NCBI GenBank assembly: GCA_020697715.1
Contig: JAEHCO010000001.1
Span: 128,001-192,000 of the forward strand
Direction of reading: 5' to 3'
From: Methanobacteriota archaeon
GTDB taxonomy: Archaea; Thermoplasmatota; Thermoplasmata; SG8-5; JAGLSY01
Length of the DNA stretch: 64,000 nt
Positions 33,001 to 36,000 of the stretch are shown one piece after another (within the stretch, counting starts at the first letter, position 1; every line of letters begins with the position of its first letter). The position numbers were made by a program.

Positions 33001-36000
33001 GCTTAAATGCCTTGTGTTATGATATACCAATCATATCCACTCCGAGCAGGCCAATGGGGGAAGGGATTGGCCAGAGAGGAGTGGGGTGGGGGGATTGTCG
33101 ATATTTTGGGGTGGGCGATTCAGGGGTTTGACCATTCTATTGAGGGTGTGTCGTGTTCGTTTGTTATGTGGGGTGAGGATAAGGACCCCGCCCCTGCGTC
33201 TCTCGGGGCGGGGCTTGATTTTCCTCCTCGCTTTCAAATGCGAGGAGTCAATCTTCCTACTGGCACATCGCAACTGTCACTCACTGAGATATAGAATATA
33301 GTACCCCGCCCTAATGAATATTCTTTGAATAGTCCAGACGGGGCATGCTCGCACTGGTTCGAACATACATTGTTGGGAATGTGCTTTGTAGAGAATATGC
33401 TGGCCTATTTCATGGGAATTGTGCCCGCGACCTGTTCCAATATATCCATGCCCTTCTCGATGTTCTCAATCGTATTAGCATACGAGAACCTGAGATGGCC
33501 TTCTCCACCGCTGCCAAAGGCAGACCCGGGAGCGCATATCATTCCAGCCTCCAGAAGCTTCATCGCGAAATCCATGCCCAGTATATCATGATCGAAGGAT
33601 GGGAAAGCGTAGAAAGCTCCATTGGGCTTCAAGCACGTGAAGCCGTCGATCTTGTTGATACGATCGACGATGACATCTCGCCTTTTCCTGAGTATGTTCA
33701 CTCTCTCATCGATCTTATTGTCAGGTGCTTCCATCGCCTTCTGGCAAGCATATTGCAATGGAGTTGGTGGGCATGCGATATTGTAATATTGAATTTTGGA
33801 AAGGTCCTTGATCAGTTCCTCGGAAGAGGCCATGTATCCCACCCTCCAGCCGGTCATGGCGAAGGATTTTGAGAAGGAGTTTATGTAAACCACATTGTCA
33901 TAATCCCCATTGAGGAAAGAATAATGTTTGCCATCATAGACTATTTTGTCATACACCTCATCTGATATTATTACGAGATCATGATCGATGGCTATGTCCC
34001 TGATCGCCCGAATGGTGTCCTTGTCTATGACCCCGGATGTTGGGTTATTGGGAGTATTGAGAATGATGGCCTTGGTCCTGGTGTTTATGAGCTCCAGTAT
34101 CTCATCTGGCTGTGGAACAAAAGCATGCTCCTGCTTGAGCGAGTATTTCACTGGGAAAGCACCGCACATGATAGCGTGGGGTGAGTAAAGCACGAAGCCA
34201 GGATCCGGGATAAGTATCTCATCACCATGGTCAAAGAGTGCCATCGCGGACACCAAAAGTCCCTGGGTGGCACCTGCGGTGATCATCACGTTCTCACGGG
34301 TGACATCTTTTCTATTTATGTGAAGGCTTTCGGCTATGGAATCTCTTAGTTCCGGCATGCCCTTGGTCGGGCCATAGCCATTATGTCCCTCATTGACTGC
34401 TTTTGACAAGGCCTGCTTTGCCTCATCTATCGGCTCGAAATCCAATTCACCGATACCCAGGTTTATGGTTCCTGGCTTAGCCAATTCGAACATCTTTCTT
34501 ATTCCAGATATCTCAAGTCTTTTTGTCCTTGCTGCTGCCCAATCTCTCATGGCAACCGCAATGCTTAAACTTGATTTTAAAGGCTTCGGAACATATATCG
34601 CATTTTGTTAAATTATAGTATGGAATAGTAGTCGGTTGCCGTAAGACCATCAATAAAAATTTAACTAAACGCGGGGCTTTTTGCTCCGTGAGTATGGGCT
34701 TATGGCCTATGGAATGAAACTTTCAGGCTCGATTAAAATACATTCAAATCCTTCAGGGCCTGATAGTTTCAGGAAAGTTTATATCACAATGGATATTAAC
34801 CCTGGTTGAGTGATAAAATGCAAGCAGGACAAATGGCTTATGATAGAGCAATAACTGTATTTTCCCCAGATGGTAGACTGTTCCAGGTAGAATATGCGAG
34901 GGTCGCCGTGGGTAGAGGTACGACGACAGCCGGTCTCAAATTCAAGGACGGGGTCGTATTGATGGCAGATAAAAAGATGAGCAGCAGGCTCATTGAATCC
35001 AATTCAATAGAGAAGATATTCTCTATCGACAAGCATGTTGGCTGTGCTACATCTGGCCTGGTTGCCGATGCAAGGGCACTTGTGGATTATGCAAGGGTCG
35101 TTGGTCAGGTCAACAAGGTGACTTATGAGGAAAGGATCAGTGTCGACATACTTGTTAAGAAGATATGTGATTATAAACAGAATTACACACAGTATGGTGG
35201 AGTTCGTCCCTTTGGAACCGCACTCCTGGTTGGAGGCGTTGATTCACATGGAAGCCACCTGTACGAAACAGACCCAAGTGGTGCCTTGATATCCTACAAA
35301 GCAGGAAGCATAGGTTCTGGACGGGCGGTTGTCATGGAACTTTTCGAAGATAAGTTCAAGGATGAAATGAAAATGGAAGATGCCATACTCCTTGGTTTGG
35401 AAGGCTTGAAAAGAGCCAGTGATGATCCACTGACACCAGATACGGTGGAGATCGGGATCATAAGGAAAGGAAAGGATTTCGAGAAGCTGGATGAGGCCGC
35501 TATCAAGAAGTACCTCGATAAGCTATCGGGACAAAAACCGAAAAAGGAAGGGTAATAAAGATTTTATCTTTATTAAATTCAAGGTGCTGGTTAGATGGTC
35601 AAGGACAGGATGATCCAAAAGGAATACACGGACAACTTAATGGACGGTATGGTGATCGCAAGCCTTGACAGTCATGGACATACATTTGAGATCATTGTAG
35701 AAGCAGATGCTGTCGACGATATTAAGACTGGAAATATAGAAGATATTCTTGAGCATATGCCAGAGGATACGATATTCAAGGATGCACGGAAGGGAGATAG
35801 GGCATCCGAGGACACCCTCAAAACGGCTTTTTCTTCAGAGGATGTCGCTGAGATCGCCAAGGTGATCATTAAAAAAGGCCAGGTTCAGCTTACTACCGAA
35901 CAGAGAAAGGTCATGACCGAAGAGAAGAGGAAGCAAGTGATCCACTTGATCGCCAGAGAGGTCATGAACCCGCAGACCAAGATGCCACATCCACCACAGA

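Follow-up and report, generated by a model that had tools for sequence, protein, structure and literature searches.

What is the hairpin-rich, non-coding DNA that follows an aminotransferase gene in the window (the whole 64,000-nt stretch analysed, on contig C11 of the genome G000), and how did related copies come to be scattered through the genome? The initial annotation described a ~240-nt element at about 30 places and, together with a lone and vertically kept TnpA, read it as a REPtron. With the 441-nt intergenic stretch 32964-33404 as query, BLAST retrieved 44 pieces from G000 at E<=1e-3, the query itself counted, and iterated nhmmer searches with a model of the repeat, here called X, gave 48 matches that merge into 43 loci, 12 of them near full length. 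The family is real, but its members are mosaics of ~250 nt and more numerous than stated. In the sister species G003, for which at least 30 copies had been claimed, 48 nhmmer matches correspond to 44 loci. Conserved, syntenic core genes flank most X loci, and the copies are dispersed and form no arrays; their description as a dispersed intergenic hairpin repeat of the REP/BIME or PATE kind is supported. TFIIB was found in G000 and only in archaeal control genomes, which identifies the host as archaeal.

The X copy of the window and its surroundings are listed in Table 1. The model reads this copy on the + strand; its working strand was taken as the - strand, on which the upstream aminotransferase gene is encoded. 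Folded as RNA, the - strand reached a z-score of -4.85 (0 of 200 shuffles equally good) and the + strand one of -2.23 (6 of 200). Two GC-rich hairpins, H1 and H3, resemble each other and share one orientation, as the initial annotation had noted and as sequence, folds and alignment bear out, with a third hairpin, H2, in between. The covariation reported for H1 and H2 holds as well. The outer three pairs of H2 are fully complementary in 22 of 24 stems and occur in five combinations (CTC/GAG 13, CCA/TGG 6, CTT/AAG 1, CTG/CAG 1 and CAC/GTG 1), and an alignment of 12 copies contains the compensatory H1 variant CCCCGACCC/GGGTCGGGG. At the level of sequence, these compensatory changes indicate that the structure of X is under constraint. 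The leader motif also follows stop codons at other X loci. A small ORF starting at the ATG of CATG was considered and discarded, its frames and stops varying by eye among hairpin types.

Table 1. Features of the X copy and its neighbours in the window.
Feature	Position	Strand	Details
ORF of 252 aa (ORF252)	32205..32963	-	No Pfam family at E<=0.001
Repeat A	33030..33133	+	Separate G-rich low-copy repeat adjoining X; 4 matches in G000, 6 in G003
X copy	33143..33398	- (taken as working strand; model reads +)	C11:161143-161398; nhmmer E 2.9e-67
Hairpin H1	33186..33213	-	CCCCGCCCC, 10-nt loop, GGGGCGGGG (+ strand letters); sequence, fold, 12-copy alignment
Hairpin H2 (middle, covarying)	33224..33247	-	CTCCTCGC, 8-nt loop, GCGAGGAG; folds
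Conserved box	33274..33282	-	CTGTCACTC (GAGTGACAG in sense); invariant in alignment; 20-30 nt past H3 in sense direction
Hairpin H3	33304..33343	-	40 nt, 'a' loop type; + strand CCCCGCCC..GACGGGG; sense CCCCGTCTGG..CAGGGCGGGG; pattern match G000:C11:161304-161343
CATG next to H3	33344..33347	-	With H3, the order-wide conserved core
Leader	33348..33404	-	Two degenerate ~15-nt repeats, GCATATTCTCTACAA and GCACATTCCCAACAA (sense); start directly past aminotransferase stop
Class I/II aminotransferase, 381 aa	33405..34550	-	ORF; PF00155 at 234.8 bits; upstream gene, stop abuts X

On our own crude ORF map, from which all gene positions in the placement statistics derive, X begins 0-40 nt past the end of a gene's reading frame, and its hairpin strand is that gene's coding sense. 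The stop codon precedes CATG by 18-57 nt (57 nt for the TAG of the aminotransferase, C11:795142-), and in 21 of 31 G000 loci no more than 22 nt separate it from the sense-side end of the model. Among the 43 loci of G000, tandem intergenic regions hold 15 sense and 3 antisense copies (binomial p 0.0075), while 16 loci are convergent, 3 divergent and 6 at contig edges; the 44 loci of G003 divide into 14 sense and 3 antisense tandem cases, 21 convergent, 5 divergent and 1 edge. Convergent regions are over-represented relative to the background (16/37 vs 212/1080, p 0.0013), and divergent, promoter-bearing regions are under-represented (3/37 vs 256/1080). The orientation bias could reflect selection against a harmful orientation instead of selection for a useful one.

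The two strands of X also differ in their folding. Hairpins are more stable as sense-strand RNA in 53 of 61 cases in G000 and 64 of 68 in G003, with median differences (sense minus antisense) of -3.8 and -4.45 kcal/mol, respectively. Most of this asymmetry goes back to a single conserved stem, and the copies are therefore not independent. G.U pairs number 114 in sense vs 38 in antisense in G000 and 107 vs 28 in G003; at the sixth pair of the stem, 44 G000 hairpins have T.G and 2 have G.T, and the sense-strand mismatches of 17 H1 stems comprise 22 T.G vs 5 C.A. Orthologous hairpins, of which only 8 pairs are comparable, differ by 5 changes between Watson-Crick and G.U pairs and 2 between Watson-Crick and A.C. 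A strand-specific single-stranded-DNA substrate would fit the strand asymmetry equally well. Runs of four or more T are commoner on the antisense strand (45 vs 27 in sense for G000, 38 vs 24 for G003), and the terminator-like patterns in the X copy of the window occur on the + strand only and at chance level (2 found vs 2.1 expected). Read in sense, X therefore does not have the make-up of a simple terminator of hairpin and U-run, and a GC stem with a T-run acting on the strand of the upstream gene was rejected.

Because X directly follows a stop codon and its hairpin strand runs in the same sense as the gene, the upstream mRNA most likely carries it as a 3' tail. The reading that we favour, with a confidence that stands about midway between doubt and conviction, is that X is a REP/BIME-like archaeal repeat of mRNA 3' ends, which would provide 3'-end structure, was once mobile and serves as the landing site of a smaller insert, Z. 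X is a mosaic in which two or three stem-loops that belong to a single old class of hairpin (CATG-CCCCGTCT..loop..GGGCGGGG-TA) stand head-to-tail, together with a GTGACA box. Its stable stem-loops, whose G.U pairs exist on the sense strand only, may hold up 3' exonucleases or read-through and so influence RNA stability or termination. The family spread and turned over in the past and would now be slow or silent, and Z, with its variant Z', is a separate 57-nt element that enters the loops of X hairpins precisely, without duplication and in one orientation.

At the DNA level, strong matches to X are confined to the genus: G003 matches at 3.8e-58, followed by G001 (1.3e-20) and G002 (3.4e-18), with all others at 1.9e-6 or weaker. 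The stem was followed with patterns. CCCCGTC-N12-42-GGGCGGGG has 32 matches in G000, 27 in G003, 14 in G004 and 42 in G010, compared with 0-1 for the reversed-pattern control. A stricter hairpin pattern is positive in 4 of 4 genomes of family f1 and 9 of 9 of family f4, in none of the 4 genomes of f2 and f3, and in 8 of 133 genomes from the remainder of the class, with one match each. The stem CATG-CCCCGTCT..GGGCGGGG-TA is conserved over two families of the order, and its loops are genus-specific. G000, G003, G010 and metagenome loci all retain the flanking CATG and TA, the GTGACA core is also conserved in G010 (family f4) and metagenome relatives, and the stems fall into length classes of 39-41 and 28-29 nt. 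A metagenome scan with the hairpin pattern yielded 29 loci, mostly of the G010 type, that are 64-78% identical to those of G000 and G003, with one 450-nt piece at 94%; viral contigs gave 0 matches. The initial annotation did not contain the placement behind stop codons in sense, the strand asymmetry of the hairpins or the fact that two families share the stem.

Between G000 and G003, about 40% of the X loci differ. X is absent in G000 at 15 of 34 G003 loci with colinear flanks and absent in G003 at about 10 of 43 G000 loci, and a single alignment spans X-bearing spacers in 5 of 33 cases, vs 396 of 773 for other spacers (p 5e-5). Most of the 'empty' sites hold 20-80 nt of unrelated sequence, the spacers being strongly diverged and the boundaries of X blurred; locus 1 is the only clean empty site and has a 4-nt GGGC overlap. 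Truncated remnants are present: at locus 7, G003 retains half a hairpin, and G000 has an isolated tail motif at C33:11624-11634. A search for solo tail motifs that allowed 2 mismatches was dominated by chance matches. The best pair of X copies within a genome is 92% identical over 218 nt. The absence of closer pairs, the many species-specific loci, the remnants and the avoidance of divergent regions would all suit a selfish relic, a decaying non-autonomous element without a host role whose mobiliser has been lost or was left unassembled and whose placement and orientation reflect nothing but tolerance; G000 is a 94%-complete draft in which short contigs may hide repeats. We regard this as the strongest competitor, albeit an unlikely one, since the stem, its length class, CATG, TA and GTGACA are near-invariant over two families while all else changes, and the compensatory changes and the tight start at the stop codon point the same way. 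Some orthologous copies are, moreover, kept above their spacer (at C28:165647-165935, 0.956 for the X part vs 0.809 for the rest of the spacer and 0.906 for the flanking genes), although this conservation was scored at 5 loci only, 2 of which show the opposite trend.

The two-hairpin loop insert of 55 nt in the initial annotation is Z, a precise insert of two 9-bp hairpins whose length is 57 nt. G000 has 5 full copies and 2 of the variant Z', which carries compensatory changes in the first hairpin, and the loop location stands for 6 of the 7. Filled and empty hairpins differ exactly by Z, both in the orthologous pair G000 C22:109852 and G003 C46 near 129326 and in paralogous twins; the X copy of the window is without the insert. 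Z has no inverted terminal repeats and makes no target duplication, and its orientation is constant in 11 of 11 GC-hairpin hosts. In 8 of these 11 the insertion context is a loose GAGT(G/CC)^A(A/G)CG, and in the others CGATC^, AGCCC^ or TAGCG^, so that the left flanks vary (GAGTG, CGATC, AGCCC, TAGCG, GAGTCC); the two Z hairpins are dissimilar. BLAST with Z found Z copies only, the Z pattern matched 0 stretches in the metagenome scan, and three Z loci compared with Rfam gave nothing relevant. A reading of Z as an archaeal intron with a bulge-helix-bulge was discarded, the junctions lacking such pairing by eye. A 7-nt match between Z hairpin 1 and a hairpin upstream of tnpA (TATTTTG..CAAAATA) is absent in G003 and was taken as chance.

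A further proposal, which we put forward as conjecture and consider improbable to about the same degree as a selfish relic, is that the invariant stem (CATG-CCCCGTCT..GGGCGGGG-TA with the GTGACA box) might be the recognition site of a vertically inherited factor common to the two families and might double as the landing pad of Z. This would be an archaeal analogue of the long-lived REPIN-RAYT partnership, but with head-to-tail, sense-strand hairpins at mRNA 3' ends, some of them with kink-turn geometry. A kink-turn, the site bound by L7Ae, comprises a canonical helix, a 3-nt bulge, tandem G.A/A.G pairs and a non-canonical helix. Judged by eye, hairpins of type 'd' (CCCCGUCUGA-AUGACAG..CUGUCAU-CUG-GA-GGGCGGGG) and of the f4 types fit this geometry, and types a, b and e, including the copy of the window, do not. 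If the proposal held, few known site-specific mobile DNAs would be as small as Z.

Under the REPtron reading of the initial annotation, the resident TnpA would use the hairpins as single-stranded-DNA substrates and copy X and/or Z in trans, a role proposed for RAYTs acting on REPs and for IS200/IS605 TnpA acting on PATEs. The single Y1 transposase on which it builds is there: PF01797 has exactly one match in G000 (C1:16308-16799), and other transposases are few, with no DDE_Tnp_1, rve or RVT_1 in the assembly and only one IS110 fragment and one tyrosine recombinase besides. The conserved internal mismatch and strand-specificity of the hairpins, the lack of terminal repeats and target duplication in Z with its constant orientation, and the absence of a copy-specific duplication round H3 (same-copy 5.90 vs cross-copy 5.96 of 10) also speak for this reading. 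The protein, however, is of the IS200 type, with 116 bits for NF033573 (cut-off 55), and falls short of the RAYT model NF047646, for which it reaches 23.8 bits where 80 are required. None of 10 TnpA loci, inspected in 10 genomes over 1.5-3 kb on each side, is flanked by X-class hairpins. The G000 locus alone has one such hairpin nearby, on one side and beyond a tRNA-Phe gene, and the hairpins that do occur beside tnpA in G000 and G003 (GCGAAAGTA..TACTTTCGC) are of neither X nor Z type.

The distribution of TnpA does not follow the hairpins either. Relatives (E<=6e-50) occur in f2 and f3 genomes without the hairpin class; in G005, G006, G008 and G009, TnpA matches at E 4.3e-52 to 3.3e-55 go with 0-2 pattern matches, none family-like, whereas G004 (14 hairpins) and G018 (10) lack a TnpA match at completeness of only 83% and 72%, respectively. 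Nor is TnpA simply kept vertically, as had been assumed: in G003 the gene lies at the same locus but inverted, with 70% nucleotide identity vs 86-91% for its flanks. Along the 956-kb contig the orientation of X tracks the neighbouring gene, with no switch of the replication-strand type. TnpB matches were sub-threshold only (18.3 bits vs 26.3; 18 vs 30.5), which also disposed of a TnpB/omega-RNA origin, and the dissimilar hairpins and variable left flanks of Z fit such a transposase poorly. We therefore consider the REPtron reading unsupported and mobilisation by the resident TnpA distinctly improbable. A classical MITE derived from a DDE element was likewise rejected, as the end hairpins share one orientation, there is no fixed duplication and neither DDE_Tnp_1 nor rve was found.

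Less probable still is that each X is a small RNA gene, expressed from either strand at gene ends and acting, for example, on the neighbouring mRNA. The structured, covarying hairpins, the A/T-rich TATATTC box that G000 copies have between H3 and the GTGACA box, and the T-rich tails after H1 and H2 on the + strand would suit such genes, but the best Rfam 15 match of X (Pseudomon-1) reaches 26.9 bits vs a gathering score of 50, the three Z loci likewise gave nothing relevant, the TATATTC box is not conserved in G010 and the module content varies between copies.

The window also contains the 1,191-nt indel reported in the initial annotation, which we confirmed: ORF252, A and X form a block (C11:160206-161396) that faces 19 nt in G003 (C22:50632-50650) and ends exactly at the stop codon of ORF252. 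Copies of A lie beside an X locus in 2 of 4 cases in G000 and 1 of 6 in G003. That X marks junctions of gene gain and loss, as attC sites do behind cassette genes, is suggested by this block, by the single orientation directly 3' of stop codons and by the more frequent rearrangement of X-bearing spacers, yet it is very improbable given that this is the single gene-carrying case, that most X loci are dispersed between syntenic core genes and that only one tyrosine recombinase was found; nor was any R/L box symmetry of the attC kind noticed, although no search was aimed at it.

Among known systems, the REP/BIME repeats of Enterobacteria and Pseudomonas, including REPINs with their RAYT, are similar to X in being short, GC-rich imperfect palindromes, present in tens of copies outside genes, mostly at gene 3' ends, in mosaic combinations and with a conserved stem mismatch. 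Passages of PMC12306157 and PMC3733652 place REPs near stop codons and give them roles in mRNA stability or termination. X differs in its archaeal host, in hairpins that stand head-to-tail and not as inverted pairs, in the lack of a RAYT-type transposase or any transposase gene flanked by X, in a stem kept over two families instead of differing between species, and in its ~250-nt length with leader and tail repeats. It has no unpaired GTAG or CGTC tag; the palindrome is flanked by CATG and TA(C), and CGTC lies inside the paired stem. The CGTC REPs (Di Nocera et al. 2013, PMC3733652) share with X, as far as parts of that paper describe them, a CGTC on the 5' side of the stem and the lack of an adjacent dedicated transposase. 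There, CGTC is an unpaired terminal tag, stems of 8-9 bp start with A-T pairs, loops measure 4-5 nt, head-to-head dimers prevail and the hosts belong to bacterial phyla only (PMC3733652, in part), whereas X has CGTC within the stem, loops of 12-25 nt or more and head-to-tail units.

Palindrome-associated transposable elements (PATEs), derived from IS200/IS605, were named in Haloquadratum walsbyi (PMC3119063). They occur in archaea, have no coding sequence, end in hairpins and lack both inverted terminal repeats and target duplication, an outline that suits Z best. Unlike PATEs, however, neither X nor Z shares end hairpins with a resident IS200/IS605, no TnpB was found, the two Z hairpins are unlike, and the sequence in front of Z seems to follow a loose consensus more than one set tetranucleotide. 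IS1397, ISKpn1 and others are protein-coding insertion sequences of >1 kb that insert in REP loops and make target duplications. Z shares with them the site-specific position in the loop of an extragenic palindrome, but is 57 nt long, non-coding and free of duplication. Literature searches on archaeal REP/RAYT, PATE and MITE-type repeats, supplements aside, turned up no account of the X family. Curated REP families and their proposed transposases are from bacterial phyla only in the relevant parts of PMC3733652 and PMC2817692, and a survey that counts archaeal 'REPs' takes any intergenic palindrome and, in the sections concerned, names no family (PMC12306157).

X is a well-defined archaeal family, with a stem conserved over two families, a strict position and strand, and a nested insert with exact sites. 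The case serves as a caution that one Y1 transposase together with hairpin repeats need not mean a REPtron. The conserved stem, the strict placement behind stop codons on one strand and the nested, exact-site insert make two questions testable in archaea: whether such repeats are kept for shaping the 3' ends of mRNAs, a poorly understood subject in this domain, and what moves hairpin-only elements where no RAYT is present.

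The dispersed hairpin repeat of the initial annotation, here termed X, proved to be a real family. The genome under study (G000) is a 2.12-Mb draft of 34 contigs, in which repeated elements may be missing. It belongs to an archaeon, since TFIIB domains are present and, among the control genomes, occur solely in four archaeal ones; the whole assembly (94% complete) has no match to mcrA (PF02249). The window corresponds to C11:128001-192000 of G000, and its X copy sits in a 441-nt spacer separating two minus-strand genes. This spacer as BLAST query returned 44 pieces in G000 at E<=1e-3, and iterated nhmmer searches rose from 35 to 48 hits, which merge to 43 loci. 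In the sister species G003, 48 nhmmer hits correspond to 44 X loci.

Features of the window copy of X and of related loci (plain coordinates are window positions; parts of X are listed in + strand order, the direction of the initial annotation)
Feature	Position	Strand	Remark
Class I/II aminotransferase gene	33405-34550	-	PF00155, 234.8 bits
ORF252 (252-aa ORF)	32205-32963	-	without Pfam family
X copy	33143-33398		
Tail region			45 nt, first part of X
Hairpin H1	33186-33213		CCCCGCCCC..GGGGCGGGG as + strand
Hairpin H2	33224-33247		after H1
Box CTGTCACTC	33274-33282		after H2
GAATATAGTA			between box and H3
Hairpin H3	33304-33343		
CATG			directly after H3
Leader			57 nt, two degenerate 15-nt repeats; runs up to the aminotransferase stop codon
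Orthologous X loci differing in H3 loop type or modules	C11:936142+ and G003 C11:446034-		
Orthologous X loci differing in H3 loop type or modules	C11:620578+ and G003 C11:154749-		
tnpA locus	G000 C1:16200-17300 (L001); G003 C50:1150-2560		

An alignment of 12 near-full-length copies spans about 250 nt. The proposed covariation was borne out: the three outer pairs of H2 are wholly complementary in 22 of 24 stems, in five combinations, and H1 varies in a compensatory way (CCCCGACCC/GGGTCGGGG). Module content is not constant among copies; H2 can give way to a short H3-class hairpin, leaders hold 1-3 repeats, and H3 has at least five loop types. An Rfam search with X gave nothing over threshold. 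At X loci of G000 the motif TTCGA recurs ahead of each hairpin (TATTCGAA) and after H3 (TATATTCGATG, CATTCGAG). In the 'd' and f4 types the hairpin sequence runs CUGA - helix - 3 nt - GA - GGGC (G000 C22:109680-109720 and C2:17027-17067; loci L147-L166 of G010, a genome of family f4), which by eye seems to match kink-turn geometry; the remaining loop types do not.

The main new result concerns the placement and strand of X, for which genes were located on a crude map of our own (longest non-overlapping ORFs of at least 90 aa). We define the sense strand as the reverse complement of the initial + strand model. In G000, X runs in the sense direction along both genes in 15 tandem spacers and opposite in 3 (binomial p 0.0075); of the other loci, 16 are in convergent spacers, 3 in divergent ones and 6 at the edge of a contig. 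The corresponding numbers in G003 are 14 sense tandem, 3 opposite tandem, 21 convergent, 5 divergent and 1 edge. X is enriched in convergent spacers (16/37 vs 212/1080, p 0.0013) and depleted in divergent ones (3/37 vs 256/1080, p 0.028). Of the two ends of X in a convergent spacer, the one closer to a stop codon is that on the sense side at 11 of 16 loci in G000 (not a significant excess) and at 19 of 21 in G003. The sense-side end lies at most 22 nt from a stop codon at 21 of 31 G000 loci, and the leader motif frequently starts at the first base after the stop. Orientation shows no dependence on position along the 956-kb contig.

The hairpins are likewise asymmetric when folded as RNA, with the sense strand more stable in 53 of 61 (G000) and 64 of 68 (G003), and with 114 vs 38 and 107 vs 28 G.U pairs, respectively, on the sense and the other strand. 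At the sixth position of the stem, 44 G000 hairpins have a T.G pair and 2 have the reverse, and variants of H1 contain 22 T.G and 5 C.A mismatches. Folding of the entire window copy yields z -4.85 for the minus strand and z -2.23 for the plus strand. Because the copies share descent, these counts characterize the family and not independent events.

Complete X is restricted at the DNA level to the genus; its core hairpin is more widespread. The pattern CCCCGTC-N12-42-GGGCGGGG has 32, 27, 10 and 4 matches in the genus (four genomes), 14 in G004 (same family, other genus) and 42 in G010, with 0-1 matches for the reversed-pattern control. The pattern CCCCGTCT-N18-34-GGGCGGGG is present in 4/4 genomes of family f1, 9/9 of f4 and 0/4 of f2 and f3, and has a single match in each of 8 among 133 other sampled genomes of the class. 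In G010 and metagenome relatives the CATG and TA flanks and a GTGACA box 20-30 nt beyond are kept, whereas loops, leaders and spacers are not alike. The hairpins fall into two length classes, of 28-29 nt and 39-41 nt. The heptamer GCGAAGC, a very stable DNA mini-hairpin, recurs in loops of the short class (G002:C13:2158-2186 and G004:C47:8886-8914).

The strict start of the sense strand behind stop codons, stems dependent on G.U pairing on that strand only, and a stem kept across two families suggest that X is most likely part of the upstream mRNA, at its 3' end, and, if functional, would be an RNA 3'-end structure. A strand-specific DNA substrate would also fit the strand asymmetry. A simple terminator is disfavored by T-runs, which are commoner on the strand opposite to sense.

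Comparison of G000 with G003 reveals considerable turnover. At 34 X loci of G003 with colinear G000 flanks, X is present in G000 at 19 and missing at 15, three of the latter having 200-250 nt of other sequence instead; conversely, about 10 of the 43 G000 loci are without X in G003. A single alignment spans 5 of 33 X-bearing spacers vs 396 of 773 others (p 5e-5), and orthologous loci can differ in H3 loop type or downstream modules. Between copies in one genome, identity reaches no more than 92% (218 nt aligned, G003) or 90% (161 nt aligned, G000). Since most empty sites are filled by unrelated sequence, exact ends of X cannot be read there; the sole clean site is G000 C11:42289-42369, where X lies inside an A repeat; in G003 this site is precisely empty and shows a GGGC overlap of 4 nt. 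Remnants of X show that deletions do happen, and no copy-specific duplication was found around H3. The reported indel at the window copy holds, as a 1,191-nt block of X, A and ORF252 faces 19 nt in G003. The block begins with X and finishes at the stop codon of ORF252, which is missing from the orthologous G003 site. A (33030-33133) is a G-rich low-copy repeat, with runs like GGGGTGGGGGG, that matches G000 at 4 places and G003 at 6, in some cases next to X.

The mini-insert Z, absent from the window copy, comprises 57 nt with two perfect 9-bp hairpins, TATTTTGCG..CGCAAAATA and ATAGTTCGA..TCGAACTAT; its variant Z' carries compensatory changes in hairpin 1. Matches to the hairpin-2 pattern number 7, 5, 2 and 1 across the genus (four genomes), with none in the 18 other genomes of the order. 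In keeping with the loop location first described, 11 of 15 copies occupy GC-hairpin loops (hairpins of five kinds), all 11 in one orientation relative to the host hairpin (p 0.001). The insert alone distinguishes filled from empty hairpins, as in the orthologous pair GGAGTC-T-[Z']-AACGATGG (G000 C22:109852) and GGAGTCCAACGATGG (G003 C46), and four further contexts have paralogous filled and empty twins. Insertions show no duplication, and the left flanks have nothing in common beyond a loose GAGT(G/CC) in 8 of 11. Z is a genuine site-specific insertion element. The other four copies share an A/T-stemmed hairpin at apparently one common locus: in G000 (C29:70500-70640; L208 1500-1640), where Rfam has no match, Z' sits at the tip of TTTTTCTTT..AAAGAAAAA, an arrangement likewise found in G001, G002 and G003. 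Hairpins like this one but lacking Z adjoin other loci and may constitute a second repeat family. Hairpin 2 of Z also contains TTCGA and, in its loop, GCGAAGC; the ends of Z and of the X leader read ...ATTCGAACTATG and ...ATTCGAACATG.

The initial annotation linked X to a lone Y1 transposase as a REPtron. A single such gene is indeed present (one PF01797 match), but the REPtron reading is not supported: the protein is IS200-type (116 bits, cut-off 55), falls below the cut-off of the RAYT model (23.8 bits vs 80), and 0 of 10 TnpA loci are flanked by X hairpins. TnpB was not found. A search of 41 genomes gave relatives of TnpA in 22, including f2, f3, f6 and f19, all without X hairpins; G004 and G018, both incomplete, have hairpins and no TnpA match. 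The tnpA locus is shared by G000 and G003 beside tRNA-Phe and msrAB (msrA/msrB). In G003 tnpA is inverted and 70% identical (flanks 86-91%), and two gene blocks nearby differ in order. The G003 locus also has a duplicated tRNA-bearing segment with a truncated tnpA remnant. The Y1 transposase as the agent of X spread is possible but unsupported. Other transposase families are almost missing from the G000 assembly; a 502-nt contig carries the beginning of an IS110-type transposase (C26:23-223; 29.9 bits, cut-off 29).

The name PATE was reportedly given for Haloquadratum. By its anatomy and placement, X is a REP/BIME-like mosaic repeat. Bacterial phyla are the setting for curated REP families, GTAG/CGTC tags and the RAYT link in the relevant passages of PMC3733652 and PMC2817692, and the passage of PMC12306157 that counts intergenic palindromes in six archaea defines no family and leaves RAYT unmentioned. 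Searches of the published literature, supplements aside, brought up no description of the X family. As a whole, the earlier observation is confirmed and extended. X represents a novel archaeal form of REP/BIME-type repeat, in which an unusual insert is nested. Its interest is moderate, and would be greater should the invariant stem turn out to have a dedicated factor.
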